64,000 bases of DNA, from NCBI GenBank assembly GCA_965287045.1, contig OZ336880.1, positions 40,920,001 to 40,984,000 on the forward strand, given 5' to 3'. Position 1 is the first letter of the stretch; the number at the start of each line of letters is the position of its first letter. A program made the position numbers and the translations under genes. Below, piece by piece: positions 8,362 through 57,446 of this stretch. Below the pieces are notes generated by a model, which saw nothing but the letters and a program-made list of their open reading frames with translations, was not told the DNA's origin and searched no databases. This DNA is from Carcharhinus amblyrhynchos. Its lineage: Eukaryota.

Positions 8362-8662
8362 GGTGGCATGTTGGCACAGTGGTTAGCACTGCTTCCTTAC
8401 AGTGCCAGGAATCCGGGTTCAATTCCGGCCTTGGGTCACTCACTGTCTGTGTGGAGTTTGCATGTTCTCCCCAAGTCTGCCTGAATTTCCTCCGGGTGCT
8501 CCAATTTCTTCCCACAAAGATGTGCATGTTAGGTTGATTGGCCATGATAAATTGCCCCTTAGTGTTGGGGGACTAGCAGGGTAAATACCTGGAGTTATGG
8601 GTGTTGTCATCGCAGGCTCAATGGGCCAAATGTCCTCCTCCTGCACTGTTGGGATTCTCTGA
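8362..8662 (+). mobile_element. tRNA-derived SINE, HE1/V-SINE-like
   Basis: A box TGGCACAGTGG, B box GGTTCAATTCC, V-domain-like core TGTGTGGAGTTTGCATGTTCTCCCC, CR1-like tail. Confidence 0.88.
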
Positions 8663-8844
8663 TAGAAGAGGAAGGATATATTGATAGTGAAATGACGTAG
8701 GGTGGAAGAACCTCATGAAAATCATAAACACTAGCAAAGAACTTCTTTGTCCTGATTGGCCATTTTCTGTGCTGTGAATATTACGCAATACTGATTTAAA
8801 ATAGGACGTTGGTAAATATAGGAATATAAAATTGTATTTTTCAG

Positions 8845-14826: not shown

Positions 14827-14892
14827 AACATGCTGTTGAGGAGGTTACGCACATTACAGTTTCAAGAAAGGAAGTAGTGCCTCCAAAAAAAG
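14827..14892 (+). CDS. TTN: Titin PEVK exon
   Basis: ttaaag|AA...AAAG|gtatgg; 66 nt; EHAVEEVTHITVSRKEVVPPKK. Confidence 0.84.
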
Positions 14893-15564
14893 GTATGGAA
14901 ATATTCATAGTGTATTTTTTAAATATCTTAGTGAAAGAAGAAGGCACAGGACTTTGCTGGATTTGCGACTTGACTCTAAGTGTGGAATTTAATGTTATGC
15001 CTTAGTAGCCAGGGTACTTTTAATCAAGCAAGATGGTGGTGGGTGGGACGCCACTGCTTTCCCACCTATGCCCCAATTACATCCAGGGTAGGAAGTGTCA
15101 TGGATGACTTTCCTCTACTGCCACCAATTGAGGCCTTTAAGTGGGCAATGAGTGCCCACTGAATTGCTGATTTGAGGGCCTGACTTCGGGAAGGGTGGAA
15201 GATTTGCTGAGATTCACTACCCTCCCCTTGATGCTGACCCACCCCCACGTCCTATGTCCCCTGCTTCGTCATCATCCGCCTGTGGAGGATCCCTCAGTGA
15301 TTAAGGCCTTGGTTGGGTGTACTGCTGGAAATTGCCACCACTCATGTGGGTGCTGCTGAGCAGTAGAGCAGCCGGCCTTTGGCTGCTGGCTTTGGTGGGC
15401 GAGTTCTACCCTGGGGTCCTTGTTCCAGCACAGGCCCACAGCTGCCCTGTTGATTACCTGATTGGCATTTAATTCAGCTGGCCTTCCCAAAAAAGAGTCA
15501 ACGTAGAGCTTTTACCAGCAAGACTCCATTACATCCATTAACTACACTCCATCCATGTATGTTT

Positions 15565-16420
15565 TCAATTACACATGAACCTTCTGGATATTTTAAGGTT
15601 ATTTCTCAATGAGCCTAAATGATTTTAGCTGCATCTCTTCATATAGTGTTCTTTATGTATCCCAAACTGCTTTTCTATATTGCATATTATAGTTTTATTT
15701 ATCCATTAAGTAGAGGGGCACGTTGCATTAGAAACACTGGCCGGAATCTTGTGGAGGCAGTTGGGACCCTGGTTACCAGCTGGAAAACATGGCAGGAGCC
15801 AATCATCACCGCTTTTAGGGAAAGCATCTTGCTCCACACAAACACTCAACAATGTCAGCAGCGGTTTTACCTTGGGATCAAGGACTCCAGAAGCAAAAAT
15901 TCACCCAGCAATAGCTGCCAGCCAATCAGAGACCAGAACAATGGTGGTAACATTGGTAGTGGTGGCTGCTGCCAATGTAACACCCACCCGAAGACCTGGA
16001 CAGGCCAACAATGTGTGATGGTGGGAGGGATGGTACTGGGGAAGGTGTTGAGCAGCAAAGAAGGTGGGGTGTTTCTCAGTGGGCACCCCCATCCCCCCTG
16101 AATGTTGGCTCCCTCGACCTGACTCTCAGTACTTTTGAACGAAACACCCCCATCACAAGAGACCCCAAGTATGGCAATCCCCTTTCCCCCTGCATGCCGG
16201 TAATTTAAAATAGCTTAAGTGGGCATTAATTGGGCCACACATCGGCATTTCCACCATGGACTTATTTCTGGTGGAGGTGGGAAGATGGCAGGGTATCTAT
16301 CTGATTAACAATCATATTCACCATGCTATTGGAGGTAAATATATGAAGAGTTACAACTAAAATAATTTAGATTAGTTGAGAAATAGCCTTAAAATATCCA
16401 GAAGGTTCATGTGTAATTGA
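15565..16420. repeat. 81-bp imperfect inverted repeat (arms 15565-15645 and 16340-16420), repeated in each cassette unit
   Basis: TCAATTACACATGAACCTTCTGGATATTTTAAGGTTATTTCTCAA.. is the reverse complement of ..TTGAGAAATAGCCTTAAAATATCCAGAAGGTTCATGTGTAATTGA (44/45), and complementarity extends ~36 nt further. Confidence 0.95.
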
Positions 16421-16651
16421 CCTGTCTTGTAGCTGCCTTGCTAATTAAGTAGATTGCTTAAGGCAATAATAAGTTTTTGTATAGTAGAATCACAATACAA
16501 AGTGAGAAATTATTGTGTGAATGGAGTATGATTGTACACTGTGCAATGCATTAGATGGATCTTTTGTGTTTAAAGCTAAATGTATTTCTGTGTTAAAATG
16601 TTCCATGTGCAAGTCTTTGATTTTTTTTGTCCAAAATTGAATTTCTTAAAG

Positions 16652-16723
16652 TGCCAGAGGTTCCTGGGGTTCTTCCTGAAGAAGCGAAACCAGCTTTGCG
16701 AAAAGAGAAGGTTGCTCCAAAAG
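16652..16723 (+). CDS. TTN: Titin PEVK exon (triplicated cassette, copy 1)
   Basis: ttaaag|TG...AAAG|gtacaa; 72 nt; VPEVPGVLPEEAKPALRKEKVAPK. Confidence 0.88.
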
Positions 16724-18351
16724 GTACAAAGGAGACCACGTGTTGTATATTACACATTATCTTTTGATAAGTCATGCATCCATCTTGTCATTACCATGCA
16801 AAATATTTATCTTTTGGAGGCTTCAAACTGCTGGTGCTTAGTTACTTGTCAATCTTATTTTACAATATTCCATTGCTGAACTGTGCTATTTCTCTGCTAG
16901 AATTAGAAATAATTTTGATTAATGTCTTTATTATTAGCTAAGCATTCAGATGCAGAGGCTGAGAAATTTAGCTCCTTAATGCTTACTTTTCCATGCTTTA
17001 CGAGAACCAATTTTCTCCAAAATGGCTTGCTTACACTTCTGGTGCGAGCCACGCTGTCACATTTTGTTGAGGGTATTAGAGCACATGCAGGGAGCATCTG
17101 TGAGACATTCGTAGACATCAGTCAGCATGTAACATTGACTACTTTTAAGTTAGTTGATTGATTTCTATTGGCTGTACAACATTTGCCGAAAGGTTTAGTG
17201 GGTTTCCATTAACTACCATTCCATCCATGTATGTTTTCAATTACACGTGAACCTTCTGGATATTTTAAGGTTATTTCTCAATGAGCCTAAATGAATTTAG
17301 CTGCAACTCTTCACAGTGTTCTTTATGTATCTCAAACTGCTTTTATATATTGCATATTATAGTTTTGTTTATCCATTAAGTAGAGAGGCACGTTGCATTA
17401 GAAACACTGGCCGGAATCTTGTGGAGGCAGTTGGGACCCTGGTTACCAGCTGGAAAACATGGCAGGAGCCAATCATCACCGCTTTTAGGGAAAGCATCTT
17501 GCTCCACACAAACACTCAACAATGTCAGCAGCGGTTTTACCTTGGGATCAAGGACTCCAGGAGCAAACATTAACTCAGCAATAGCTGCCAGCCAATCAGA
17601 GACCAGAACAATGGTGGTAACATTGGTAGTGGTGGCTGCTGCCAATGTAACACCCACCCGAAGACCTGGACAGGCCAACAATGTGTGATGGTGGGAGGGA
17701 TGGTACTGGGGAAGGTGTTGAGCAGCAAGGAAGGTGGGGGGTTTCTCAGTGGGCATCCCCATCCCCCTTGAGTGCTGGCTCCCTCGATCTGACTCTCAGT
17801 ACTTTTGAATGAGACACCCCCATTACAAGAGACCGTAACTATGGCAAACCCCCTTCCCACTGCATGCTAGTAATTTAAAATAGCAGCGGTGGGATAAGAC
17901 CCTTAAGTGGGCATTAATTGGGCCACACATCGGCCTTTCCACCATGGACTTACTTCTGGAGGTGGGAAGATGGTAGGGTCTCCACTCGACATCCTTTTAT
18001 CTGATTAACAATCATATTCACAGTGCTATTGGAGGTAAATATATGAAGAGTTACAACTGAAATCATTTGGACTAGTTGAGAAATAGCCTTAAAATATCCA
18101 GAAGGTTCATATGTAATTGACCTGTCTTGTAGCTGCTTTACTAATTAAGTAGATTGCTTAAGACAATAATAAGTTTTTGTATAGTAGAATCACAATACAA
18201 AGTGAGAAATTATTGTGTGAATGGAGTACGATTGTACACTGTGCAGTGCATTAGATGGATCTTCTGTGTTTAAAGCTAAATGTATTTCTGTGTTAAAATG
18301 TTCCATGTGCAAGTCTTTGATTTTTTTTGTCCAAAATTGAATTTCTTAAAG

Positions 18352-18426
18352 TGCCAGAGGTTCCTGAGTTTCTTCCTGAAGAAGCGAAACCAGCTTTGCG
18401 AAAAGAGAAGGTTGCTCCAAAAGAAG
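18352..18426 (+). CDS. TTN: Titin PEVK exon (triplicated cassette, copy 2)
   Basis: 75 nt; VPEVPEFLPEEAKPALRKEKVAPKE; AG/GT intact. Confidence 0.88.
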
Positions 18427-20204
18427 GTACAAAGGGAGCCATATGTTGTCTATTAGCATTGTCTTTTGATAAGTCATGCATCCATCTTGTCATTACCACG
18501 CAAAATATTTCTCTTTTGGAGGCTTCAAACTGCTGGTGCTTAGCTACTTGTCAATCTTATTTTACAATATCTGTCATTTCAATTGTTTGCTGATGCATTT
18601 GTGCCATTCCATTGCTGTACTGTGCTATTTCTCTGTTTGAAGTAGAAAAAATTTTGATTAATGTCCTTATTATTAGCTAAGCATTCAGATGCAGAGGCTG
18701 AGAAGTTTAGCTCCTTACTGCTTGCTTTTCCATGCTTTACAAGAACCAATTTTCTCCAAAATGACTTGCTTACACTTCTGGTGCGAGCCACGCTGTCACA
18801 TTTTGTTGAGGGTATTAGAGCACATGCAGGGAGCATCTGTGAGACATTAGTAGACATCAGTCAGCATGTAACATTGACTTGATACAAGTGCTGCCAATAT
18901 AGAGCTGAACACTCCAATCAGCAGCCTCTCTTAAGCTCACACTGTGAGCCATTTGGCATTTAGCAATGGTACATGGTTAAGGGATCAGCAACTACTTTTA
19001 GGTTAGTTGATTGATTTCTACTGGCTGTACAACATTTGCCGAAAGGTTTAGTGGGTTTCCATTAACTACCATTCCATCCATGTATGTTTTCAATTACACG
19101 TGAACCTTCTGGATATTTTAAGGTTATTTCTCAATGAGCCTAAATGAATTTAGCTGCAACTCTTCACAGTGTTCTTTATGTATCTCAAACTGCTTTTATA
19201 TATTGCATATTATAGTTTTGTTTATCCATTAAGTAGAGAGGCACGTTGCATTAGAAACACTGGCCGGAATCTTGTGGAGGCAGTTGGGACCCTGGTTACC
19301 AGCTGGAAAACATGGCAGGAGCCAATCATCACCGCTTTTAGGGAAAGCATCTTGCTCCACACAAACACTCAACAATGTCAGCAGCGGTTTTACCTTGGGA
19401 TCAAGGACTCCAGGAGCAAACATTAACTCAGCAATAGCTGCCAGCCAATCAGAGACCAGAACAATGGTGGTAACATTGGTAGTGGTGGCTGCTGCCAATG
19501 TAACACCCACCCGAAGACCTGGACAGGCCAACAATGTGTGATGGTGGGAGGGATGGTACTGGGGAAGGTGTTGAGCAGCAAGGAAGGTGGGGGGTTTCTC
19601 AGTGGGCATCCCCATCCCCCTTGAGTGCTGGCTCCCTCGATCTGACTCTCAGTACTTTTGAATGAGACACCCCCATTACAAGAGACCGTAACTATGGCAA
19701 ACCCCCTTCCCACTGCATGCTAGTAATTTAAAATAGCAGCGGTGGGATAAGACCCTTAAGTGGGCATTAATTGGGCCACACATCGGCCTTTCCACCATGG
19801 ACTTACTTCTGGAGGTGGGAAGATGGTAGGGTCTCCACTCGACATCCTTTTATCTGATTAACAATCATATTCACAGTGCTATTGGAGGTAAATATATGAA
19901 GAGTTACAACTGAAATCATTTGGACTAGTTGAGAAATAGCCTTAAAATATCCAGAAGGTTCATATGTAATTGACCTGTCTTGTAGCTGCTTTACTAATTA
20001 AGTAGATTGCTTAAGACAATAATAAGTTTTTGTATAGTAGAATCACAATACAAAGTGAGAAATTATTGTGTGAATGGAGTACGATTGTACACTGTGCAGT
20101 GCATTAGATGGATCTTCTGTGTTTAAAGCTAAATGTATTTCTGTGTTAAAATGTTCCATGTGCAAGTCTTTGATTTTTTTTGTCCAAAATTGAATTTCTT
20201 AAAG

Positions 20205-20279
20205 TGCCAGAGGTTCCTGAGTTTCTTCCTGAAGAAGCGAAACCAGCTTTGCGAAAAGAGAAGGTTGCTCCAAAAGAAG
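20205..20279 (+). CDS. TTN: Titin PEVK exon (triplicated cassette, copy 3)
   Basis: 75 nt; identical to copy 2. Confidence 0.88.
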
Positions 20280-21660
20280 GTACAAAGGGAGCCATATGTT
20301 GTCTATTAGCATTGTCTTTTGATAAGTCATGCATCCATCTTGTCATTACCACGCAAAATATTTCTCTTTTGGAGGCTTCAGACTGCTGGTGCTTAGCTAC
20401 TTGTCAATCTTATTTTACAATATCTGTCGTTTCAATTGTTTGCTGATGCATTTGTGCCATTCCATTGCTGTACTGTGCTATTTCTCCGTTTGAAGTAGAA
20501 AAAATTTTGATTAATGTCCTTATTATTAGCTAAGCATTCAGATGCAGAGGCTGAGAAGTTTAGCTCCTTAATGCTTGCTTTTCCATGCTTTACAAGAACC
20601 AATTTTCTCCAAAATGACTTGCTTACACTTCTGGTGCGAGCCACGCTGTCACATTTTGTTGAGGGTATTAGAGCACATGCAGGGAGCATCTGTGAGACAT
20701 TAGTAGACATCAGTCAGCATGTAACATTGACTTGATACAAGTGCTGCCAATATAGAGCTGAACACTCCAATCAGCAGCCTCTCTTAAGCTCACACTGTGA
20801 GCCATTTGGCATTTAGCAATGGTACATGGTTAAGGGATCGGCAGCTACTTTTAAGTTAGTTGATTGATTTCTATTGGCTGTACAACATTTGTCGAAAGGT
20901 TTAGCGGGTTTCCAGACTTGATGAAGGACTTGGTCCTGACTTGAAGGATTCTTCACAAATCATTTAATCAGAGGTATGGGCCCAGCATCTTCTTGAACTA
21001 TGACATGACAGGGTGAATGAACTGAGGATCTCTAAGCGGAACAAGTTGCTGGAAACGAGAGTCAAGGACGGAAGAAGGACTCTCAATGGGAGCATGAGGA
21101 CCAGTATGTTAGACATGTCCAATTCATTACGTATATCCTCAGTGAAATCCACTATCTATTGCAGCCACAAGTGCAACATCGGAACAGGATGATGTTGGCA
21201 CTGACAGTGTCCATGGAAGTGACTGTGGCCAGGGTTCTTCTGCTTCTGATTTTGTTGTGTCAGCACCATGGACTAATGTGCATATTCCACCAGCGTGTAT
21301 ATGTGTAATGTTAGTTAAACTAGTCATGACTTGTTGAAATCGTAGGCCTGATAATGGAAATGTTTACATGGAAATAATCTAAAGGTAGGCCTTGAAGATT
21401 TCAAATGATGGGGCTGTGACATTTTGTCGCCATAACATAGTAGAGCATGGCTATATTTTCTGACTGACCTGCCTATGCACCAAGAATTTCATTGTGCATA
21501 ATTACGAGCCTTCTTCTGAATGTCCCACCAAATCTTCATCTGAGTCATCTGCAGCAGAACGTTTGTGAAACCTCACCATCTGGCAAACTAGCACCAATGC
21601 TTCCCAGATCCCCTGACCTGGCTATAGCCCACTTGTACCTGGTGACTCACCATGTGAAAA

Positions 21661-22918: not shown

Positions 22919-23041
22919 ATGTTGCTGTGAAAGCTACTCCTGAAGAACCAGTTCCGGTTCAAAGGAAACCTACTCCTGGGAAACCAGTTCCGGTTCAAAG
23001 GAAACCTACTCCTGAAGAACCAGTTTCAGTTCCAGTAAAAG
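22919..23041 (+). CDS. TTN: Titin PEVK exon with internal 36-nt repeat
   Basis: tgccag|AT...AAAG|gtacaa; 123 nt; DVAVKATPEEPVPVQRKPTPGKPVPVQRKPTPEEPVSVPVK. Confidence 0.82.
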
Positions 23042-26171: not shown

Positions 26172-26475
26172 AATCATAGAACTCCTACAGTGCAGAAGGA
26201 GGCCTTTGGCCCATCGAGCCTGCACCAACAACAATCCCACCCAGGTCCTATCCCCATAACCCCACATATTTATCCTCGTAATCCCTCTGACACTAAGGGG
26301 TAATTTATCATGACCAATCAAAGTAACCCGCACATCTTTGGAGTTCAGGAGGAAACTGAAACACCCAAAGGAAACCCATGCAGACACGGGACAAATGTGC
26401 AAACTCCACACAGATTGCGACCCAAGCCTGGAATTGAACCCTAGAAGTGCTAGCCACTGTGTCATCACGCCGCCC
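26172..26475 (-). mobile_element. HE1/V-SINE-like SINE
   Basis: Reverse complement of the 8362-8662 element (aaactccacacag, ggaattgaaccc, ccactgtg). Confidence 0.88.
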
Positions 26476-28397: not shown

Positions 28398-28664
28398 TTT
28401 TTAAAGTTTATTTATTAGTCACAAGTAAGGCTTACATTAACACTGCAATGAAGTTACTGTGAAATTCCCCTACTCAGCACTCTCCAGCACCTGTTCGGGT
28501 CAATGCTTCTAACCAGCACATCTTTCAGACTGTAGGAGGAAATCCAAGCAGATACAGGGAGAACATACAAATTCCACACAGACAGTGACCCAAGCCGGGA
28601 ATCAAACCCAGTTCTCTGGCACTGTGAGACAGTAGTGCTAACCACTGTGCCACCTTGCTGCCCC
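28398..28664 (-). mobile_element. HE1-like SINE subfamily with a different tail
   Basis: Same tRNA head and core as HE1-like copies; tail aaagtttatttattagtcacaagtaaggcttacattaacactgcaatgaag. Confidence 0.87.
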
Positions 28665-30238: not shown

Positions 30239-30694
30239 GTATAAAAAGTTTTTTTTTAAACAATCTTGTAAAAGTATTCTGTCTTCAGTTATGATCCATG
30301 TTACCTTTTGTTGTCTTCTAATATGTTGCAGTGTGTGTTTTCTTTTAGTGTTTCTTGTTAATTGATGATAATTGTCTTCTACATGTTCATAATGAGTGAC
30401 AATCTGCTACAATACCATGGCATTCTGTAATTCATGCTTAAAATCTATGTAAATTTGTCTTAAACAGTTTTAACAGAAGTCTAATATTTGTGCAATTTGG
30501 ACTTTAGTCTGTAAGCTTGAACATTCGGATCTTTACTGAATTCAAATATTAAAATTTTTGAATTTAATAAAATTTTAATTATTGCATGATAATTTGATGA
30601 CTTACTTTGACAAAAAAAGTGAAAACTTGTCTTTAAGTGTAAGGTCAGCAAAGGAATTATAATTGCATGAAATATATTTTGTTAACAAACCCTC

Positions 30695-31990
30695 AGGTGG
30701 AATTCTTCCATGTTGAGACTAGGTGCTTTGGAGGGTTGCTCGAGCGCACCTGTCCTGCCAACCAGAATGGTGAGATCCCACCTCAGATTCAGTGCTTGGA
30801 ATCTCATTAATTGTACACAAACGCGCCCCCCTCAATTTTCCTGGTTGTCTGGCAGCTGATTCATCCGTTTGCCCTCTGCTGATGAGTTCAAAAGTCCTGG
30901 TGCTATATTTAAACACCGGTCCTGTTCACTCGTATCGCTCTCTCCAGCCCATTTGCCTTCACTGTGCAGGACGTCAGCAACCCAGAGGGAAAAGGCCAGC
31001 AGCTTCAAGAAGAAGTCTTTTTGATTCAACCACTCCCCCTCCACCCCTGAGCCCATCACCTGTGAGGCATCCATGTCCCTCTTTGATCTCAACCACCATC
31101 TCTGGAGTCTTTATCCATCCCCTTCCAGTAAGTGATGTGGTATTCCTTTGATCCCCTTATTGTGAGCTTTCCATGCAACCTTATTGGGGTCCAGTTTTCA
31201 TACCATTGGTCCTCCTTCTGTTGTTTGGCTTCATCATTTACCTTCTTGCCCACTGTTTTGCCAGCCATCCTAAGCCCTCACCATTCCCCTCCACCCCTCC
31301 CACCCTTGTACAGCCCTCCTTCCATATTGCTCTCCTTGTCTTAGCCTTTGTCAGGCTATATCCACTCCATCCCAAACTTCAGAACTTTATTGTGATAGCT
31401 GCATGAATCCCACAGCACAGTCCTGTAAAGATAAACACTGCTGGATGGCACTGGGGAAAGGAGACCCCTGTACTCCTCAACCCCAGCCTCAGTACTTATC
31501 TGACCTGGTGATATAGGAGGTTCCAGCAGCATGGTGATGTCCATGGAGTCCAGCTCAGCATGGAGATGGAGGGCAGAGTGGTGTACAGTGCATCAGGAGC
31601 AGCGCAGCACAAGAGCAAAATGTTGCACTGACCCCGAAGTGTCTGGACAACTGAGGACCATCTTATGCACGTCACTAATTAGCAATTGGGTTTGACATTT
31701 CCACTGGTATGATGGAAGCTGGAAAGGCCTGATGGGAAGCTGTGGGGGTGGTGGGTTTGCTGTTTGGATGAGAGTTCATGAGATGCAAATGAATGCAAAT
31801 AACATTTGTGCCATTTACCAGCAGGTAGTGCAACCCACTATTAAACTCCCCTCCCCATCCCCCACCCCCATCCTCCTGCCCCATTGGGAGAATTGCAACA
31901 TGATTTTCCTTGGATTTTTTTGTCTTCCACTAGATTCACCACATCCGCCCACCACCAAACCCTCTGGAGCTGGCTGGAAGAATTCCGCCC
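30695..31990. mobile_element. 1.3-kb non-autonomous TIR DNA element (Harbinger-like)
   Basis: TIRs AGGTGGAATTCTTCCA / TGGAAGAATTCCGCCC (14/16); homologous in inverted orientation to 55876-57446. Confidence 0.78.
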
Positions 31991-36856: not shown

Positions 36857-37105
36857 TGCCAGAAGTCGCCAAGAAGCCAGAAGTCACCAAGAAGCCAGAA
36901 GTCGCCAAGAAGCCAGAAGTCGCCAAGAAGCCAGAAGTCGCCAAGAAGCCAGAAGTCGCCAAGAAGCCAGAAGCCGCCAAGAAGCCAGAAGCCGCCAAGA
37001 AGCCAGAAGCCGCCAAGAAGCCAGAAGTCGCCAAGAAGCCAGGAATACCAGAAGACATTAAGCCAGTTGCTGTTTCAAGGGAAAAGGGTGTCATCTTAAC
37101 AAAAG
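36857..37105 (+). CDS. TTN: Titin PEVK exon expanded by an 18-nt minisatellite
   Basis: ttaaag|TG...AAAG|gtacaa; 249 nt; V(PEVAKK-type)x10 PGIPEDIKPVAVSREKGVILTK. Confidence 0.88.
36859..37038 (+). repeat. Coding minisatellite, 10 x 18 nt (CCAGAAGTCGCCAAGAAG)
   Basis: Counted directly: 6 PEVAKK, 1 PEVTKK, 3 PEAAKK. Confidence 0.97.
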
Positions 37106-44399: not shown

Positions 44400-46945
44400 C
44401 CCATTAGGATGGTTTGCCCTAGAGGGGAACTTGCCAAGCACCTGCCATTCTTGTCCTTCGCTAGAGCATGGTAGAGATTGAGAGTTTGGAACATGCTGTT
44501 AAAACAGGCTTGTTGAGTTGCTGCAATGCAGCTTGTAGATGGTACACACTGCAGCCACTGTGCACCTGTGATGAATGGATTGAATGTTTAAGGTTTGGAG
44601 GGGGGCATTAATCAGGAATGCTACATTTTTCCTGGATGGTGTCAAGCTTCTTTGGTGTTGGAGCTGCATTCATCTTGGCAAGTGGAGAATGTTCCATCAC
44701 ACTCCTGTTTTATACCTTGTAAATGATGGGCAAGCTTTGGTTCACTTCAGAATTCCCAGTCTCTGACCTGCTGTTGTACAATAAGAAGTCTCACAACACC
44801 AGGTTAAAGTCCAATAGGTTTATTGGTAACACAAGCCACAAGCTTTCAGAGCGCTTCTCCTTCTTCTGTTCACAAATAGGGCATATAAAGACACTGCTCT
44901 TGTAGCCATGGCTTTTGCAGTTAAGTTTCTGGTTAATGGTACCCCCCCTCCCCCACACACACACACCCCAACCCAGGATGTTGATGATGTGAAATTCAGT
45001 GATCGTAAGACTGCTAAACATCAAGGGGAGATGATTAGTTTTTTGTCTTGTTGAGATGGTCATAGCCTGGCACTTGTATGGATATTAGTTACTACTTATC
45101 AGTCCAAGTGTGAATGTTTCCCCAATCTTGATACATCTGGACACAAACTGCATCAGTATCTGAGGAATTGCAGGAAAGTACTGAACGTCATGTAATTGTC
45201 CCCACCTCTGACTGAATTTTGCAGCAAAGTTCATTGATAAAGTAGCTGAAGATGTTTGGGCTTGGAACACTACCCTGAGGAACTCCTGCAGTAAACTCCT
45301 TAGGGCCAAGATGATTATCAATAACCATTAGTATTTTGCATTGTGTTAGCTATGACTCCAACTAATGTAGAGTTTTCCCATTTGCTTCTTGATGCCACAT
45401 TCAGTTAAAGCAAGCCTTGATGTTGATAACGGATATTCTCCCCTCACTGCCTGTATTCAACTCTTTTTTTCTGCAGCTGAATGGCCCTGGCAGACCTCAA
45501 ACTAAACATCTATGAGCAGGTTATTGCTGTGCAAGTGTCGCTTGATATCACTGCCACCACCATCTTCCATTACGTTGCCGTTGATTAAGAATAGGCTGTT
45601 GGGACAATAATTCACCAGGCTGGATTTTTCTGCTTTTTGTGGACAGGGCATGTCTGGACACTTTTGCATATTGTCAGGTAGAGGCCAGCATTGCAGTTGT
45701 GCTGGAAAGTTGGCTGGAACGTGATTCTTCTGGAGCACAAGACTACAACTTGGATGTTGTTAGGACCCATTATAGTTCTTGTAGCTGGTACTGTCAACCC
45801 ATTCTTGGTATCAGGTGGAGTGAATTGAATGAGTTGACGACTAGTATCTGCAATCTTTTGACCTCAGAAGGAGGCTGAGATGGATCAAGCAATTGACATT
45901 CCAATCGGAAGATGGTTGCAAATGTTTCAGCTCCGTCTTTTTCATTGGGTTCCAGTTTGTGGAGTCTCCTCATCCTTTAGTCGTTTCATTGTCCACCACT
46001 TCTCATGTATGAATGAAACAGAACTGCAGAGATTTGATCTGGTTCATTGTTTGTACACTCGCTCAACGTTGCCTATTGTGAGCTGCTCCCAGCTTTTAGC
46101 ATAAATGTGGTGTTGTCTTATAACTTCACCATGTTGGAATCTTATCTTGAGGTTTGCATGGTGCTGCTCCTGATTGATTGAACCAGCATTGATCCTCTGA
46201 CTTGATGGTAATGGAAGACTGAGGGATGCAGCAGGTGATGGTTACACATTGCAGTTAAATACATGCTGCTCCTGTCCTTGGTTCAAGGATGCCAGGTTTT
46301 GAGCAGTTAACTCTGTTCTGAATCTATCCCATTTAGCATGATGGTGGTTCCATCCAACAGCACACAAGCTCAGTTTGACAGCAGCTATGTCCTTCAGGGC
46401 AGACCAGCTCGATCAGGAGTGTTGCTACTGAACCACTATTACTGATTGGCGTTGAAATCCTGCTTGGAGTATACATTCTGTGCTACCCTGAATACCTCTT
46501 CTAAATAAACACAGAGGAATACTAATCAACAGCTGAGGCAATGTGGCAGGAAGAAGTCAGTAGGATGTTTCCTTACCTATTTTTCACTTATTAACATCAG
46601 AGTTCACAAGGTCTGGAGATAATGTTATGAGAGCTTCCAAGATCAGTTCCTCCCCACCCTATGCCACTGTGTCACCAAGATTGGTAGGTGTGTCTGGCTG
46701 GTTGGACAGGACACACCTGGGCACAGTGATCCAAGAGTCCAGGACGTTGGCTGTAAGGTATGATACAGTGAGTATGGCTATGTCAGGGCGATGCTGGGCT
46801 CATCTGTGAAACAACTCTTCCAATTATTGCATAAGTACTAGGGCATTTGTGATGATGACATTGCAGGATCAGCAGAGCAGGATGTGCCTTTGTCTTTTGT
46901 GGTGTTCTGGTCAGTGTTGGGTAGGGTCCATCTGGTTTTATTTTA
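44400..46945 (-). mobile_element. Long degenerate CR1-clade LINE (same family as 21661-22830), antisense
   Basis: Minus-strand RT remnants (PDNMQKCPDMPCPQK..NYCPNSL; VVFQAQTSSATL); continuous homology with 21900-22830. Confidence 0.82.
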
Positions 46946-47106
46946 ACCAGTTTCTTCCCTCATGTTTGTGTAAGTGAGGATACATAACGTTCCCACGGGC
47001 TGATTTTCTCTGCCAAGCACGCTTGTGTTATTTTAATTTGTTAGTTCGCACACTTCAAGATAAAATGATTATATCTTAAACTTCTTAACATTATTGTTTC
47101 TTAAAG

Positions 47107-47178
47107 TGCCAGAGGTTCCTAAGAAGCCAGTTCCTGAACCACTGAAACCAAAGAAAGAGGCAGTTGCTCCAGAAAAAG
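47107..47178 (+). CDS. TTN: Titin PEVK exon, PEPLKPKKE family copy 1
   Basis: 72 nt; VPEVPKKPVPEPLKPKKEAVAPEK. Confidence 0.9.
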
Positions 47179-47976
47179 GTATTCCTCCTTGTGATTTTAG
47201 ATGCTGGAAATTCTTTTATGACGCATATATCGTGAACTGGTATTTTCCGGGCCTGGTGGGGTGGGTGCAGCTGCGACGGATGCAGCAAGCCAGCCAAATG
47301 TTCATTGACTTTGAAGAGAGGGATAGAGATGTTTTGCTGCAATTATAGAGGGCATTGGTGAGCCACGTCTGCAGTATTGTGTGCAGTTTTATCTGAGGAA
47401 GGATGTCCTTGCTATAGAGGAAATACAGCGAAGGTTTACCAGGCTGATTCCCGGGATGGCAGTCTGATACATGATGAGAGACTAAGTCCGTTAGGATTAT
47501 ATTCAGTGTAACTTAGAAGAGTGAGAGGGGTTCTCATAGAAATTTATAAAATTCTAACAGGGTTAGACAGGGTAAATTCAGAAAACCTGGGCACAGTGAT
47601 CCAAGAGTCCAGGACGTTGGCTGTAAGGTATGATACAGTGAGTATGGCTATGTCAGGGCGATGCTGGGCTCATCTGTGAAACAACTCTTCCAATTATTGC
47701 ATAAGTACTAGGGCATTTGTGATGATGACATTGCAGGATCAGCAGAGCAGGATGTGCCTTTGTCTTTTGTGGTGTTCTGGTCAATGTTGGGTAGGGTCCA
47801 TCTGGTTTTATTTTAACCAGTTTCTTCCCTCATGTTTGTGTAAGTGAGGATACATAACGTTCCCACGGGCTGATTTTCTCTGCCAAGCACGCTTGTGTTA
47901 TTTTAATTTGTTAGTTCGCATACTTCAAGATAAAATGATTATATCTTAAACTTCTTAACATTATTGTTTCTTAAAG

Positions 47977-48048
47977 TGCCAGAGGTTCCTAAGAAGCCAG
48001 TTCCTGAACCACTGAAACCAAAGAAAGAGGCAGTTGCTCCAGAAAAAG
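47977..48048 (+). CDS. TTN: Titin PEVK exon, PEPLKPKKE family copy 2
   Basis: Identical to copy 1. Confidence 0.85.
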
Positions 48049-48179
48049 GTATTCCTCCTTGTGATTTTAGATGCTGGAAATTCTTTTATGACGCATATAT
48101 CATGAACTGGTATTTTCCGGGCCTGGTGGGGTGGGTGCAGCTGCGACGGATGCAGCAAGCCAGCCAAATGTTCATTGAC

Positions 48180-48555
48180 TTTGAAGAGAGGGATAGAGAT
48201 GTTTTGCTGCAATTATAGAGGGCATTGGTGAGCCACGTCTGCAGTATTGTGTGCAGTTTTATCTGAGGAAGGATGTCCTTGCTATAGAGGAAATACAGCG
48301 AAGGTTTACCAGGCTGATTCCCGGGATGGCAGTCTGATACATGATGAGAGACTAAGTCCGTTAGGATTATATTCAGTGTAACTTAGAAGAGTGAGAGGGG
48401 TTCTCATAGAAATTTATAAAATTCTAACAGGGTTAGACAGGGTAAATTCAGAAAAAATGTTCCCAATGTGAGGGAGTCCAGAACTAGGGGTCATAATTTG
48501 AGGATAAGGGATAACCTTTTAGAACTGAGGTGAGGAATGTGTGGAATTCACTATC
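48180..48555 (+). mobile_element. CR1/HER1-like LINE fragment (its 5' part is duplicated at 47310-47585)
   Basis: gagatgttttgctgcaattatagagggcattggtgag..cagcgaaggtttaccaggctgattcc.. = CR1 ORF2 C-terminus. Confidence 0.82.
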
Positions 48556-48839
48556 ACAGCTCTCCCAATTTTGGCACAAGTCCCTCGATGTTACCAGGGA
48601 ACAATTTGCAGTGTTAACTTGGCTTGATATGTCTTTGCCATTATTGTTTCATTGCTCGGCAGTCAGTCTTATTTGATTTTAACCAGTTTCTCCCCCAGTA
48701 TTGTACGTGCAAATAGATAATGTAATTTTGAGTTGTATTTCACTGTCAGATATGTTTGTGTTATTTTAACCTGTTGCTTAGATATCTCAATGATAAAAAA
48801 AATGCACGCAAAGCAACTTAACATTATTGTTTCTTAAAG

Positions 48840-48911
48840 TGCCAGAAGTTCCTAAGAAGCCAGTTCCTGAACCATTGAAACCTAAGAAGGAGGCGGTTAC
48901 TCCAGAAAAAG
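48840..48911 (+). CDS. TTN: Titin PEVK exon, PEPLKPKKE family copy 3
   Basis: 72 nt; VPEVPKKPVPEPLKPKKEAVTPEK. Confidence 0.9.
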
Positions 48912-50352
48912 GTAGATTTCTTTTTATTTTAAATTCTGGAAATATTTGGATGAAGCAAATACCATGTTGCTATTTAAATATTAATAATCTATTTTTTCAT
49001 GCTTTAATATGTTGAGAAGTATTATTATTACTACAAATTCCAACAACCTCAACCATCTTAATTTGTGCTAGGTATGATTCTAACCAGTGGAGATCTTATC
49101 CCCAATTCCATTGAGCTTTAGTTTTGTAAAGGCTCACTGATGCCACACTGAATGAAATGCAGGCTTCAGGTCAATGGTAGTCATTCTTACCTCACTCTTC
49201 AATTCACTGTTTTGTCCACATATTTGGAACAAAGCTGAAATGAGGCATAGAGTCGAGTGGCTGTGGTAGAAGCCAAATTGAGTATCTATGAATGATTGTT
49301 GCTTGATAATACTGTCAATGATATTTCTTTCACTTAGTTGGTGATTGAGTAGACTGTTGGCTCATTCATTGGCAGGTTTGGATTTTTTTCTGATTGTGAA
49401 TTCATCCTCCTGTCTTTACTTCTGCACCCCCTCCCCACCCCTTTGCAATCCCTCTCACACCTTCATTCATCCAGTTTCTTGCGAAACCCAGCCCTCCCTT
49501 TAGGTGCACTATCGACGGCAGCTACTACTGCCAGTAACACAACCTCTTATGGAGACCAATGCATCTCATGATTGGTCAGCAGCTCTGGATGGGCAGGATT
49601 ACTGATCCGGGGGTCCTGAATCCTGGTGTAGCCCCTATGCTTGGCCACTCAAGTACCTGATTTTCAGTCGGTCCTTCCCCTCAGAAAAGATTTGGTTTTC
49701 CAACCAGTTCTCCATCCGGTAAGCTGAATCCATATCAGTTGCACAAAATCCACCCCCATGAGAGGGTATGCAGGCTGAAGTTAAGGATGAGGATTCCCAG
49801 AGTCACACCTCTAAATGCCATTGTGCCACCACCGTCACAAGTCTGTCCTGTTGGTAAGACAGAGAAAAGCCAGGGATGGTGCTACAGGAATCCGGGACAT
49901 TGGTTGTAAGGACTATGTCAGACTGTTGCTTCACTGGACTTTGAAATAGCTTTCTCAGTTTTGGCACAAATCCCCAGGTGTTGTTGAGGAAAATTTTGCA
50001 GTGTCAAATTGAGAGGCTGTCTCCTTGATGTTTCCAGCGCTTAGAGCCAAAATTCTCCTGTTTTGCCCACTACGGAAATTGTAGCGGGTGAGACAGAAAA
50101 TTCGGTGGACCATCCAACAGGAATTTCTGTTCTTGGGATGCACGCGGCCAGAGAATCCTGCCCAACATCGATGCCGTGTTGTCCATCTTGGTTTACTTTA
50201 ACCAATTTATCTCCCTGTATGTGTACACGAGTGTGCATAATGTCGCCTTGGGTTAAACTTCTCTGCCAGATATACTTGTATTATTTTAATTTGTTGCTTA
50301 GAAATTTTAATGATGAAAGCTTTGTATCTTAACATTAAACTGTTTCTTAAAG

Positions 50353-50424
50353 TGCCGGAAGTTCCTAAGAAGCCAGTTCCAGAACCATTGAAACCAAAGA
50401 AAGAAGCTGTTACTCCAGAAAAAG
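50353..50424 (+). CDS. TTN: Titin PEVK exon, PEPLKPKKE family copy 4
   Basis: 72 nt; VPEVPKKPVPEPLKPKKEAVTPEK. Confidence 0.9.
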
Positions 50425-52602
50425 GTACATATCTTTTCAACCATGCTGGTCGACACATCCTGCTCCCAGGAAATGAAGGGATCAAAGTAAAAAAAAAAGC
50501 TTTGAAATAATAAGAGAAATAACTTTTTTTGTGAAGTCATAGGCTGAAATATTACCCCTATGGGCAGATGGACTAAATATTCAACAGATTGCATTCAATA
50601 ATGCACTAATTATCTTCTTTTGTAATTACTTTAATCACCAATTTTAATTCCTTAAATATGAAACATAGATGCCCAAGTTCAAAGTATTACATGACAAAAA
50701 AAACAATTAATTTACTTTGATTTGTTTTACTTAACTAGATTCTCATCTTTTACAAATATTTTTATAAATTGTTCTTTGCATTCTTGGTTGTTGTTGTTTC
50801 TCTTCCCACAATCCTTCATCTGTTCCCATAGCAAGGTTTTGTCTGGAACAGGTTGCTAACCTGTCGTCAGAGGCTCATCGCTTGAGGGGCGCCACTCTGC
50901 ATCAAGCATGGCTGATTAGAATCTCTCCCACTCTTGCCATCTGTCATTGGCATGTTGGAAGGATTTCACAGATTGACAGTCAATCTTTTGGCTGCATTAG
51001 AAATGTACCCCCATTGCCCATCAAGTCCAAGGCCATTGATTGGGACTTGAACCCACAGCTTCTGGCAGAGACAGAGATGCAACTCAGTGTATCACAAGAC
51101 CTCCCTCTACATTCTCAGTGCCACACTCAATATCTTCAGACTCAAAAGCCACATCCTCACCTATTTCTTAATACTCTGAATATTTCATCATGAGTGTCAA
51201 GAGCAACATTTATCATATCACTTTCTCCATTTTCAGTGTCACTGTCTGTATTTTGTGTCTTCAATGAACAATTAATTATTTCATGATGGACCGATTAGAT
51301 GTTCTTTTTCATTGAGCCAAAATAAAGAGATTTCTGGGTGATCCTGTTCAGCTTTTATGTTTTATGATGTTTTCCAAGAGTGTTTTCATTTTGTTTTTCT
51401 CATAAGACAAACATTCAGTGGGTCAGGTGGCTAACCTAAGGGTGACAATCGTACTTTTCCATCATTTACCACTGATGTTCTGCCATTATCACATTCTGGG
51501 TTGACTCATATTTATGATGGATTTAATAGATAAAAGCTTCCTGAAAGAGTCTGCTCTCTTACTTGCAACACTGCTTCATGCATTCTGTTGCTGTTTGTCA
51601 ACTTACAATTCACACCTTTACATCTTCTGTGCTGTGGTGTGGCATCTGCCATTTTTGCCTTGCCAAGTGATATGTAGGTCTCAGAACATTACTGGCACAA
51701 AATAAATAAATTATGAGAGAAAAATAAGCAGATGAGAGATGCATGGTGTAATTTGTTGCATTCTTTCTTGAAAAGTATGGGTAAGGTTGTTTGAAGCATG
51801 TCTGACTTATAATGTCAGTGGGGACACCTTGTAGAATCCTCTGCTAGGAGGCCAGTGCCCCTCAGGTAGGGATGGTGTGATGTCAACTCCCATATGACAT
51901 GGTTTTTGGTCTAGGAATGCATCTCACTGGTTGAGATTGGCCTAACGACCTCAGAATGTTCCAACAAGGAGGCACATTTCTTATGTACAGATATTTGGTT
52001 TTATTTTGCAACCCTCAATGCTTCTTCCAAATAGTATTCAACATGTAGGATTAGGAACTCATAACTGAGGGAGGGCAGTGGGTGTTAATAAGTAGGAAGT
52101 TTCCTTAGCCTTGTTTGATTTGATACCATGGGAATTTATGACAACTGGAAGCAAGGTTGAGTGTTCCCAGGATCATAACAGCCTGTAGAACCTTTCTGGT
52201 GGGTCTATCCTGCTGGTGACACAGGGCATAGCCAGGATAATGATGCCGGATTCTGGAATAGTGGCTCTTTGATGGGGATCAGGCTGTTGCTTGACTGGTT
52301 TGTAGGACAGTTGTCCCAACTTTGGCACATGTCCCCAGCTTTTAATGAGGAGGATCTTTCAGGGTTAAGGTTAGGGTTGAATGTCTCTTTGTTGTTTCCT
52401 ATACTTAGGTCAATGCCAGCTGATCCTTCTAGTTTTATTTTAACTAGGTTCTTCTCTGATGTATGTGTACATGACATTAGGTAATATTGCCTTGGGTTGA
52501 ATTTCTCTGCCAGCTATGTTTGTGTTATTTTAATGTGATACTTTGATCATTTATTGATAAAATGATTACATATTCAGTATCTTAACATTATGTTTCTTAA
52601 AG

Positions 52603-52674
52603 TACCAGAGGTTCCTAAGAAGCCAGTCCCTGAACCATTGAAACCAAAGAAAGAGGCAGTTACTCCAGGAAAAG
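52603..52674 (+). CDS. TTN: Titin PEVK exon, PEPLKPKKE family copy 5
   Basis: 72 nt; VPEVPKKPVPEPLKPKKEAVTPGK. Confidence 0.9.
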
Positions 52675-52799
52675 GTATTTCTTTGTGTTATTTAGATGCT
52701 GGAAATGCCATGTTGCTGTTTAAATATTAAAATGTGATTCGATTTATTGATTATGCTTTAATACTTTTACAAGTATTGTTATTGTAGCTACAAATTCCA

Positions 52800-54395
52800 A
52801 CAAACCCAACTACCTTCCTTTGTGTTAGTTATTTCCCTTTATTTCCATTGGCATAAAATTGGTTTGGGTTCCTTAATGCCATAGCCAGTCACATGCTGGC
52901 TTGAGCTCAAGAGCTATCACTCTCTCATCTGACCTCTTCAAATCATCCTTTTTGGGGTCCATATTTGGAATGAAGCTAAAATGAGGCCTGAAGCCAGGTG
53001 CAACCCAAACTAAGTGGCTCTATGTAGGTTATTGCTGAATAAGTGTCACTTGATTGCACTGTTAATGACTCCTTTCATCACTTTGCAAATGATCGAGTGT
53101 AGAATGTTGGGTTGGTAATTGGTTTGGATTGGATTTTTCCTCCTTTTTGTAGATAGATGCCTGGATACTTTTGCACATTGTCAGGTAAATGCCAGTGTTG
53201 TAGCCATACTGGAACAGCCATCTGGAGCACAAGACTTTGTCACTACAACCAGGATTTTGTTCAGTCCCTTCAGCTTTGCTCTACCTAAAGCCAGAGATTT
53301 CTTGATATTATGTGGAATGAATAGAATTGGCTCAGTACTGTCTTCTGTGACGCTAGGACCTCAAGAGAAGGTCAAGATGAATCAGACATTTGACCCCATG
53401 TTCATGGGGCCTCCCCATCTCTGTAGTTGTTTCATTTTTAGTCACTATTCATGACTGAATGCGGCAGGACTATAGGTTTGATCAAACATATTGGTTTTGG
53501 AATTCCCTAATTTTTTCGATAGTGAGCTGCTTCAGGCATTTCTCATGCATGTCACTGGGATAGCACTTAATTTTTAAGTCTGTGTACTGCTCCTAACATG
53601 CTCTTGCACTCTTTATCGAACCAGATCTCCTAGTTCAGTGGAAATGGTAGAATAAGGGATATGACAGACCGTTAATTTATTGATTGCTGTTGAACACAAA
53701 TACTGCTGCTGTTTGATAGCCCATGTGGTTTGAGGGCGCCCAGTTATGAGATGCTAAATCTGTTTTGAATCTATTCTATTTAGTATTGTGTTAGTGCCAC
53801 ACATCACTGACAGAGATACATGGCCAGTTTGGTATTAGCTATATCTCTCAGGATCTAGCCAACTTGATCAGCAATGATACTACCAAGCCACACTTGCTGA
53901 TAGGCATTAACATCTCCCTCCTAGAATGCAATCTGTGCCCTTGCTAACCTCAGAATTTCTTCCAAATGGTGATCTACATGCAAGATAACTGTTACGTCAT
54001 CTGAGGGAGGGTAGTAGGGAATGGTCATTGAGAGATTTTCTTGATCGTGTTTGACCTGAAACCATGAGACTTTATAGGGTCCGGAGCCAATTTCGAAACC
54101 TCCTAGAGTCACTCCATCCTTACTGCTTACTGTTAAGCTACCACCTCTGGTAGATGTATCCTGCTAATAGGAGAAGTTATAGCCAGGGATGGTGATGGAG
54201 GAGCATGGAACGTTGTGATTCTCTGAGTAGTTCTATATAAAGTTATTGCTTGCTTATTCTGTGGGGCAGCTCTCCAACTTCAGGCACAAGTCACCAGATG
54301 TTTGTGCAGGGGATTTTGCAGGTTGACTGGGCAGGATATATCTTGCTTGTTTCCAGTGCTAAGGTCAATGCCAGGTGGTCCATTTGGTTTCATTT
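52800..54395 (-). mobile_element. Degenerate CR1-clade LINE segment co-duplicated with the PEVK exon
   Basis: Homologous to 45320-46945; endonuclease-like TIPYYPPSDDVTVILHVDHHLEEILRLARAQ on the minus strand; paralogous pieces at ~49045-50200, ~51780-52440, ~54765-58010. Confidence 0.8.
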
Positions 54396-54561
54396 TAACC
54401 AGTTTCTTTCCCAATTTGTCTAAATGTGGATTATAGTGACAGTGTTACCTTGAGTTAAGTTTCTCTGCCAAATATGTTATTGTTATATTAACTTATTCTT
54501 AGATATTCTAATGATGAAAGCATTAAACCCTAATCATCTTACCACTAAACTATTTTTAAAG

Positions 54562-54624
54562 TGCCAGAAGTTCCTAAGAAGCCAGTTCCTGAACCATTGA
54601 AACCAAAGAAAGAAGCAGAAGAAG
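54562..54624 (+). CDS. TTN: Titin PEVK exon, PEPLKPKKE family copy 6
   Basis: 63 nt; VPEVPKKPVPEPLKPKKEAEE. Confidence 0.88.
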
Positions 54625-55875
54625 GTATTTTTAATTTTATTATTTTAAGTGCTGGAAATATTTGTGTGAAGCAGATAACTTGATGCTGTTTAAATATTAA
54701 TATTTTGTTTTTGTTTCGTGCTTTAATATAGTTAGATGTATTGTTACTACCATCTCCAGCAACTACAACTATCTTCATTTGTGCTAGTTATATTCCAACC
54801 CATAGCAAGCTCTTCCCTGATTCCCATTGACTTCAAACTTGCAAGGGCTCCTTGATGCCACACACTATCAAATGTAGCCTTGAGGTCAAGAGCACTCGCT
54901 CTGACCACATCTTGAAATCAATATTTTTGACTATGTTTGGACGAGAGCTGAAACGAAGTTTGGAGCCAAGTGACTCGCAGAACTCAAACTGAGCATCAAT
55001 AAGCAAGTTATTGTTGAGTGAATGTTGCTTGACACTTGACAGCACTTTGCAAATGACTGAGAGTAGACTGTTGTGAGGAGGACTGTGAGTGTAATTGGCT
55101 TATTGAATTTTTCCTGCTATTTGTGATACGGCATACCCAGAAATTTTGTACATTGTCCAGTAGACATGGGGCAGGGTAGGTGTAGGAAAATGCTTTGTTG
55201 AAATGGCGGCACGGGCTCGTTGGGCTGAAGGGCCTGTTTTCCGTGCTGGGTTGTTCTATGTCTTCTTTGTTCTTTGTAGATGCCCAGGTTCTAGCTTTAC
55301 TAGAACAGCTTGGGTAGAGTTATAGATAGATCTGAAACAAAAAAACTTCACTGCTAAAACCGGGATGTTGTTAAGGCCTGTATCAAGTGGCTCAACTTGT
55401 TTCTTGATATTATGTGGAATTAATCAAATTGACTGAAGATTGGCATCTGTGCTGCTGAGACTTCCAGGAGAAGGCTAAGATAGATAATCCATGTGATACT
55501 TCTGGCTGAAGGTTGTTGCAAATGTTCCAGACTTGGCTTCTACCCCAAAGTGCTGAACTCTGCCATTGTTGAGGATGGGAATGTTTCTCCTCCTCCTATT
55601 TGATGTTTTAATGTCCACGACCGCCATGACTGAATATGGCAGCACAGCAGAACTTTTGATCTGATCCATTGGTTGGGGAATTGTTTAACTGCCTATCATG
55701 AGCTCCTTCCACGTTAGCATGGATATAGTCCTGTTGAAACTTCACAGCATTGGCACCGCATTTTTAGCTATGTTTGATGCTGCTCTGGGCTGCCTTTCTG
55801 CATTCCTCATTGAACCAATCTTGATCCTCCTGGCTTGATGACAGTTAGGAAATGAGGGCTATGGTGGGCCATGAA

Positions 55876-57446
55876 GGGTGGAATTCTCCCATGGCGAGTG
55901 CCCAGAGACACTTGCCCTTGAGCGATAATCAAGCAAAAAATGGGTTTCAGGGTAAAGGGAACGCTTGAAGGCATTGCGTGCTGGCGTGGGTGAGGGGCCA
56001 GAGCCCGATATGCACCATCACACCCCATGACAGCCAGAGGCACATCGTTCACCACAGTGTCCTGGTCTCTGGCGAGGTTGGCCGTGCTGCAGGTATCTTC
56101 CACAGGCATCTACGTTCAGACCATGACCAGGCTTTGGAGAGGGCAGGCACGATGTACAGCAGTTGGCCATGGCTGATTTGGTGGTGGACGAGCATGGTGA
56201 ATCTGTTGGGAACCTAAAAGTTGGAAACCAGCCAGCATAAAATTCTCCCAAAGGCAGATTAATGGCAGATCGCTGGTAGGTGGCACAAACACCATTTACA
56301 TTCATTTACATCTCATGATTGCTCACTAAAACTACTGCCCATTGACATCCCATCAGGCCTTTCAATGGGAATTTACGTCAGTCTAAAACCTGATTGCTAA
56401 TGAGTGACATGCGTAAGTCAGTCCTCAGCTCACCAAAGAGTTCAGGGCGAATGCAACCACAGTGGTGTGCTGCTCCTGAAGCATTGCACACCACTCTGGC
56501 AGGACAGACTGGTTCCTGTCTTCATCTCCAAGCTGAGGCTGGTTCTCATGGACAGCACTGTACTGCTGGACCCATTGACTTTCCTTTGTCATCATGTTGG
56601 ATCAGTACTGTGTCTGGGCATGAGGAGTACAGGAGTCTCCTTCCCCCTGGTGACACCCAGCAGTGTCTATCTGGATAGCACTATGCTGCTGGACACATGC
56701 GGCCACCACAACAAAGGTTCAAAGTACAAGTGGGGGTGGAGTATGAGGTGAGGATGTGGGGTTGTGATGTATTGAAGACAAGGAGGGCAATGTGGCAGGA
56801 GGGTAGTACAAGGGGTGTGGGAATGGAGTGGGCTCATGATGACTTGTACCAAGAAGGTGGATGAAGAAGATGAACATTGGAAGGCAGAGGGAAGACCAAG
56901 GGGAGAGAGGACAGACCCCAACAAGGCTGCGTGAAAAACTCACAAGCAATGGCGTCAAGAGGATACCACATTGTTTACTGGATGGGAATGCGTAAAGACT
57001 CCACATGTGGCGGGGAGAGGTCCCAGTGCAACATGGATGCCTCGCAGGTGATGGACTCCAGGAAGGTGGAGGCGTGGTGGGGGCGGGCAGGCAGGCAGGG
57101 AATGGTGATTGAATCAAGGAACAGTTGAGTTTGTTAGCCTTTTTCCTCCAGGTTGCTGACATCCTGCATGGTTTGGTGAAGACAGGTGGCCTGGAGGGAG
57201 TGATATGAGTGAGCTTGACTGGGATTTAAATATGGCACCAGGACCTTCAAAACAGCCAGGTGAGGGCAGACAGATGAATCAGCTGCCTGCACACTAGGAG
57301 ATTTGGAGGTGAACTTCCCTGCACAAAATTAATGACATTCCAAGTACTGAATCTTGGGCTGGGATCCCAGTATTCTGGCCGGTGGGACAATCACTGCCAG
57401 AACCACTCACCACCTCACTGAGTCGCAAAATGGGAGGATTCCACCA
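55876..57446. mobile_element. 1.57-kb non-autonomous TIR DNA element (Harbinger-like) nested in the LINE segment
   Basis: TIRs GGGTGGAATTCTCCCAT / ATGGGAGGATTCCACCA (15/17), 3-bp GAA on both flanks, LINE resumes after it. Confidence 0.82.

Follow-up and report, generated by a model that had tools for sequence, protein, structure and literature searches.

A single-copy inverted repeat triplicated with a titin PEVK exon in the shark Carcharhinus amblyrhynchos: probably a neutral passenger

It has been previously proposed that duplication of an exon together with one arm of an intronic stem-loop results in docker-selector competition (Ivanov and Pervouchine 2018, PMC6071210), and this proposal is repeated in PMC10790352 and PMC9013439, the main text of the latter containing neither PEVK nor TTN. 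Here, we examined a related arrangement in 64,000 nucleotides (nt) of Carcharhinus amblyrhynchos DNA (GCA_965287045.1, OZ336880.1 40,920,001-40,984,000; hereafter the window, whose positions serve as coordinates), in which an 81-nt inverted repeat, with arms A and B, is present three times along with an exon of the titin PEVK region. An initial annotation of this DNA held that arms pairing across the exons could control exon number. Our analysis suggests that this single-copy repeat is probably a neutral passenger of the exon duplication whose arms are predicted to pair within their own intron, and a modest effect of the hairpin on exon choice is possible.

The models in PMC6071210 resemble the shark array in that tandem duplication copies an exon and intronic stem-loop sequence, and the alternative pairings that result include ones in which an exon is looped out. 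However, what is copied in those models is a single arm (or a single arm from each of two stems), so that a docking site becomes limiting, whereas in the shark both arms of one stem were copied and all arms can be satisfied locally; this whole-stem case does not appear in the accessible portion of that paper. The shark array also resembles Dscam1 (PMC8791459, PMC10790352), where several intronic elements complementary to the same partner are interleaved with duplicated exons. Dscam1 differs in having one docker and many selectors, cross-species covariation, a repressor protein and a one-of-many choice among different exons, whereas the shark array has arms in a 3:3 ratio, no compensatory change was seen, and its exons 2 and 3 are identical. 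Furthermore, pairing within introns competes with pairing across them for inverted Alu pairs (IRAlu) in exon circularisation (PMC7943259, PMC5814467). The IRAlu geometry of intra-intron versus cross-exon pairing is the same, and is how the shark locus would work if it works at all, but the shark arms are unique sequence from no transposon family and the enclosed exons of 72-75 nt are short for a circle, the minimal exonic size quoted for circularisation inside lariats being 200-300 nt (PMC5814467).

In titin itself, I-band splicing and circles have been tied to RBM20 (PMC9648829), and the elephant shark PEVK region is variably spliced, with 372-424 amino acids in heart and 634-774 in skeletal muscle (PMC12241362). 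Both the human nine-exon PEVK triplication cited in PMC12241362 and a second array in our window share with the shark array symmetric phase 1-1 exons copied with their introns and transposon fragments nearby; the shark unit differs from the human triplication in being a single exon that happens to include an intronic inverted repeat. The main text of PMC12241362 mentions no inverted repeat (the word "inverted" has 0 occurrences), and a literature search, with most subscription papers and supplements outside its scope, did not turn up any account of titin PEVK exons being regulated by an intronic inverted repeat. This agrees with the initial annotation, which knew of no description in titin; the principle that duplication creates competing pairings, however, is already published (PMC6071210).

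A triplicated exon with a single-copy inverted repeat

Open frames in 464 kb around the window revealed tandem Ig exons upstream and Fn3/Ig A-band exons downstream, the domains being named on the strength of Ig/Fn3 motifs. On this basis the gene is titin and the array lies in its PEVK region, in agreement with the initial annotation. The three exon copies sit between the tandem Ig and A-band regions, are in-frame and phase 1-1, and were copied with flanking intron, as in titin PEVK tandem duplications; they are PEVK-rich, with the translation VPEV...KVAPK(E). Exon 1 can be told apart from exons 2 and 3 by two substitutions and an end that is 3 nt shorter, and the neighbouring PEVK exons start at 14827, 22919 and 23674. 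A strict scan recovered 30 PEVK exons encoding at least 832 residues, and several more were visible in a further analysis.

The array consists of three tandem units spanning 15534-20914 (~5.4 kb), whose ends share a 4-nt TCCA microhomology. Re-deriving it from the sequence returned the six arms and three exons of the initial annotation (Table 1), in the order A-B-exon three times over. The gaps between successive arms are 694 nt (A1-B1), 816 nt (B1-A2), 730 nt (A2-B2) and 969 nt (B2-A3), so the spacing of B1-A2 is, as had been noted, near that within units. All nine A-B combinations are 86-89% complementary over 77-81 nt, and the outer 45 nt of A1 and B1 form 44 Watson-Crick pairs and one G-U, exactly as first described. 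This inverted repeat is far beyond chance (BLAST E 5e-23 within the window), and the fold of 15565-16420 has a z of -9.2, with 0/20 shuffles as good. Exon 1 is flanked by B1 (231 nt) and A2 (513 nt) and exon 2 by B2 and A3, such that both have the complementary arms of more than 30-40 nt on either side that inverted-repeat-driven back-splicing requires; exon 3, as originally reported, lacks a downstream arm. Most of the A1-B1 loop (~560 of 694 nt) is an insert, parts of which (15856-15986 and 16233-16295) match sequence elsewhere at 76-83%; we infer that the loop would be ~135 nt without it.

We considered whether the arms are the terminal inverted repeats of a miniature inverted-repeat transposable element (MITE) or another non-autonomous DNA transposon, one of the outcomes that the initial annotation had listed as refuting its model. 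The geometry fits, an insert being framed by 81-nt arms; several short-range inverted pairs in the neighbourhood belong to high-copy repeats, and the loop contains repeat fragments. However, when either arm was searched against the 2.9-Gb genome, all six candidates were the six arms themselves, and an arm 22-mer with 2 mismatches allowed gave 3+3 matches, all of them local arms. The same search gave 5594 and 3870 candidates for two other short-range inverted pairs from the neighbourhood scan, and thus does detect repeat families. No further arm copy was found in the 464 kb around the window (word size 7), comparison of the sequence flanking A1 with that flanking B1 revealed no direct repeat and hence no target-site duplication, Rfam gave 0 matches, and the dispersed-repeat matches fall within the loop, leaving the arms free of them. 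With the six arms as the only genomic copies, a MITE origin is largely refuted and hardly credible, a point in favour of the initial annotation. Local inverted duplication by template switching is the likely source of such arms.

Pairing is predicted to be settled within the intron

The pairing energies that the initial annotation called for were computed for all nine A-B duplexes. They fall between -94.7 and -100.2 kcal/mol and use the same bases, so the duplexes are mutually exclusive and of similar strength. In folds of 15500-18500, forced A1-B1 plus A2-B2 pairing gave -936.8 kcal/mol and forced A1-B2 plus B1-A2 pairing gave -936.0 kcal/mol, with all arms paired locally in the minimum free energy state. 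Competing cross-exon pairings are thus thermodynamically available, as originally claimed, at an energy nearly equal to that of local pairing.

The order of transcription is predicted to act on this choice. A1-B1 was predicted to be closed 816 nt before A2 is transcribed; in the model P(A1-B1) = 1.0 once B1 is out, and with A2 out and B2 not yet made, P(A1-B1) stays at 1.0 and P(B1-A2) at 0.0. A single B1 base (position 70) is open to A2 invasion in the model, which provides no toehold, and strand exchange in a duplex near -98 kcal/mol should depend on a toehold or some helper. In addition, because both arms were duplicated, each with a nearer partner of its own, the three A and three B arms in A-B order leave no limiting docking site, and the Dscam docking/selector analogy drawn by the initial annotation is not supported for this array. 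The local stems lie at least 231 nt from splice sites, and the splicing-factor motifs TCTT, TGCATG and ACTAAY were not enriched in the arms.

As a passenger, the array might have arisen and behave as follows. Local inverted duplication would first have made arms A and B, which would have drifted at 6/81 positions before a tandem duplication with 4-nt microhomology copied the block of A, loop, B, exon and tail; the third unit would have come from later unequal exchange or gene conversion. In the nascent RNA each A arm is predicted to meet the B arm of its own unit first; their duplex, at about -95 to -100 kcal/mol, would hide only intron, more than 200 nt from any splice site, and the next A arm would meet an occupied B and wait for its own. 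As in the rest of I-band titin, RBM20 and other splicing factors would set exon choice (PMC9648829), and the predicted outcome is intron-only hairpins, with exons spliced as their neighbours are.

The alternative is that an appreciable fraction of transcripts adopts cross-exon pairings (B1-A2 and B2-A3, nested under A1-B2 or A1-B3), with exon 1, exon 2 or both looped out, which would tune PEVK length or feed into back-splicing. The near-equal energies of all nine duplexes and of the two folds, and the B1-A2 gap of 816 nt compared to 694-730 nt within units, favour such pairing; the arms are not MITE ends, and both duplication and repeat are shared with relatives (see below). Moreover, looped-out exons get skipped in known systems (PMC10790352, PMC6071210) and the PEVK region is variably spliced in one cartilaginous fish (PMC12241362). 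We nevertheless find this reading unlikely, as the docking site is never limiting, the local partner always comes first with no toehold for the second, and the arms diverge at the intron rate with no compensatory change (see below). The consequences would also be small: each array exon contributes 24-25 of the at least 832 PEVK residues, and since exons 2 and 3 are identical, a choice between them alters length only, by less than 3% of PEVK each. A circle would contain 72, 75 or 147 exonic nt (the last from exons 1+2), below the 200-300 nt quoted in PMC5814467, so that back-splicing of a lone 72-75-nt exon, which had also been suggested, is unlikely. Because exons 2 and 3 have the same sequence, the junction of exon 2 end to exon 3 start is indistinguishable from a back-splice. 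If the model of the initial annotation were true, titin spring exons would offer a first case of control by RNA structure, and the idea that duplication makes competing structures would gain a young test case in a vertebrate. Even as a passenger, the array is a natural control for that idea, with both arms copied rather than one and nearly equal energies, and at 5.4 kb it suits a minigene on kinetics versus thermodynamics in long-range pre-mRNA pairing.

A separate candidate, in which arm B would derive from a PEVK acceptor by decay and arm A would block the 3' splice site in antisense, was rejected. Pairing of arm A (15565-15600) with the acceptor of its own exon (16632-16671) is weak, at -25 to -26 kcal/mol; it accounts for the best 3 of 30 acceptors and lies at the ~1% quantile of window tiles, but the pairing is not beyond chance. 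A profile of 25 PEVK acceptors gave no match to arm B at E<20, and the direct match had a shuffle P of 0.077 and was equalled by about one tenth of 1390 intron tiles.

The context lowers the case for regulation further, as inverted pairs derived from repeats are predicted to form stronger duplexes elsewhere in the window (-180 to -1272 kcal/mol) and span 10-25 PEVK exons. The pairs that are 66-80% identical and span 10-23 of these exons are 8366-8663 with 26173-26441 and 28535-28658, 26172-26344 with 61532-61699, and 30693-31822 with 56272-57448.

Divergence, constraint and history of the array

There are 71 differences between units 1 and 2, a divergence of 4.2% in the intron outside the arms. 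Between these units the arms differ at 9/164 positions (5.5%; Fisher P = 0.42), and of the nine post-duplication arm changes none is compensatory, 4 leave a G-U and 5 break the pair. Across all 15 arm events, transitions led to 6 G-U versus 4 A-C (P = 0.75), and for all nine A-B combinations the pairing of the transcript is slightly poorer than that of the antisense strand; we therefore see no sign of selection on the RNA strand. Docker-selector elements would be expected to show conservation above the intron background, with compensatory changes. Between paralogues, a divergence of 5.5% against 4.2% and 0/9 compensatory changes lend no support to a selected regulatory role, and the skew of changes along the stem is marginal.

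That skew bears on another possibility, that a local function of the ancestral A-B stem persists, concentrated in its outer 45 base pairs (bp), as an intron shortener or a double-stranded RNA substrate for editing, with cross-pairing incidental. We consider this quite unlikely. Changes do avoid the outer stem (3/15 events, P ~0.05), two of the three outer changes leave a G-U, and 2-3 relatives appear to have kept the outer 30 nt exact. However, the outer 45 bp are not significantly slower than intron (2/90 changes between units 1 and 2 versus 3.75 expected, P(<=2) = 0.27), and the skew owes as much to a faster inner part (7/72 changes, P = 0.036). Pair-breaking changes occur at stem positions 10 (units 2 and 3) and 38 (relative X6), and arm-to-arm gene conversion would produce the same skew without function.

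A search of sequencing runs listed 23, none of them holding RNA, which has no bearing on expression or splicing. The region 15400-17330 was compared with one run from each of four related organisms (X5, X6, X7 and X12), whose left flanks are 2-3.6% diverged; 11 runs with shares of 0.10-0.15 and the same-sample runs X1-X4 lie outside this comparison. It is made on the basis of 40 of 190 difference rows and 32 of 247 pieces; depth gives no copy number, and at 15660-15854, where three runs have only one covering contig, a hole is not evidence of absence. The unique left flank is present in 4/4 relatives, a contig crosses the junction of unit tail to arm A in three of them (X6, X7 and X12), and two variants of the loop insert are found in each of X5, X6, X7 and X12. 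The shared junction and the paired insert variants thus indicate that at least two units predate the split of these relatives, with the repeat apparently shared as well; this dates the array relative to the species radiation. Among the difference rows considered, one in X6 (16383 A>C) disrupts a pair towards the outer end of arm B. In addition, one X6 contig carries unit-1 letters until the exon and unit-2 letters beyond it, which suggests further exchange between copies.

The repeat itself appears to be older. Since 6/81 differences between A and B are common to all copies, the inverted repeat would predate the duplication and be ~2.5-3 times as old if the arms are unconverted. At the other extreme, no difference separates units 2 and 3 in their first 1323 nt (17205-18527 versus 19058-20380), after which they have 10 differences in 534 nt, 4 private to each unit and 2 that could not be assigned. 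Gene conversion or unequal exchange is the likely cause of this identity, with an assembly effect possible, and array copy number may differ between individuals.

These features could also mean that the repeat worked on DNA, a hairpin at replication or repair having provoked the microhomology-mediated duplication and later unit exchange, a reading that is compatible with a passenger role in RNA and that we hold to be very unlikely. Within an intron of 1759 nt, the left breakpoint falls just 31 nt beyond the outer end of arm A (~2-7% by chance, judged post hoc), and the homogenised 1323-nt tract takes in both arms (0 differences versus 10 in the remaining 534 nt, P ~3e-4). However, a dispersed repeat that ends ~12 nt further left (matches to 15522) is an alternative trigger, and an 81-nt, 89% repeat with a 700-nt loop makes a weak DNA hairpin. 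Furthermore, the second PEVK array (47107-58238), with its seven similar exons, lacks any separated inverted repeat and contains just one 24-nt self-palindrome, near 58610; exon duplication here therefore needs no hairpin.

Several observations weigh against the repeat being a mere passenger. The gap between local and nested folds is only 0.8 kcal/mol, so that re-equilibration through helicases, editing or late splicing would be predicted to populate the exon-looping form. In Dscam1, first-come pairing is not absolute and is overcome via extra balancer structures with covariation (PMC8791459). Within the titin gene span A/B is the most identical inverted pair found, and the sole non-repeat among three tested. 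In X6 and X12, contigs break off at 15594 and resume at 16391, which mirror each other on the stem (15594 also in X7); these breaks in the assembly graph suggest that the outer 30 nt are exact complements in these relatives. Lastly, the deficit of changes in the outer 45 bp has a scan-corrected P of 0.042-0.047 and a mean-position P of 0.054-0.056, which is marginal, and with 15 events the power of the divergence tests is low. A further reading is that duplication of the whole stem created a kinetically gated switch, in which local hairpins are the default and all three exons are kept, and stems opened by a helicase, adenosine-to-inosine editing or slow splicing would refold into the equally stable nested form and loop out one or two exons. 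We regard this as rather improbable; if true, shark titin spring length would be tuned by RNA refolding, a mechanism that we did not find described for titin. The mechanical stake would be small, at 24-25 residues per exon.

Table 1. Positions of the array, its arms and its exons within the window
Feature	Positions	Strand	Remarks
Preceding PEVK-region exon	14827..14892	+	66 nt; donor 672 nt before A1
Duplication unit 1	15534..17208	+	1675 nt; start in TCCA microhomology, 31 nt outside arm A1
Arm A1	15565..15645	+	81 nt; single-copy outside array
Hairpin-loop insert, GC-richer	15738..16297	.	old dispersed-repeat pieces; outer limits approximate, by eye
Arm B1	16340..16420	+	reverse complement of A (89%); ends 231 nt before exon 1 acceptor
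PEVK exon copy 1	16652..16723	+	72 nt, phase 1-1, AG/GT bounded
Duplication unit 2	17205..19061	+	1857 nt; 71 substitutions vs unit 1
Arm A2	17237..17313	+	starts 513 nt after exon 1 donor
Arm B2	18040..18120	+	
PEVK exon copy 2	18352..18426	+	75 nt, phase 1-1, AG/GT bounded
Duplication unit 3	19058..20914	+	1857 nt; same as unit 2 across first 1323 nt, then 10 differences
Arm A3	19090..19166	+	identical to A2
Arm B3	19893..19973	+	identical to B2
PEVK exon copy 3	20205..20279	+	75 nt, phase 1-1, AG/GT bounded; identical to copy 2

Other features of the titin locus

Most PEVK exons have two in-frame acceptor AGs 6 nt apart (for example at 16650-16657), which could yield two-residue micro-variants. 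In a likely PEVK exon at 22919-23041, which contains a 36-nt repeat present 2.9 times, the usual first AG is lost and the exon would use the AG 6 nt downstream. Another PEVK exon, at 36857-37105, owes its expanded length of 249 nt to an 18-nt repeat present in 10.3 copies. The second PEVK array extends over 46420-58317, with its seven exons at 47107, 47977, 48840, 50353, 52603, 54562 and 58170, duplicated with their introns and 64-87% identical. Downstream of titin (L056:7998-9748 into L057) we found a long inverted-repeat cluster that includes 734-nt arms of 98.9% identity, 284 nt apart. Finally, middle-Ig exon blocks of titin (L036:5779 and L037:4194 onward) are recent-looking mutual duplicates with near-identical translations.

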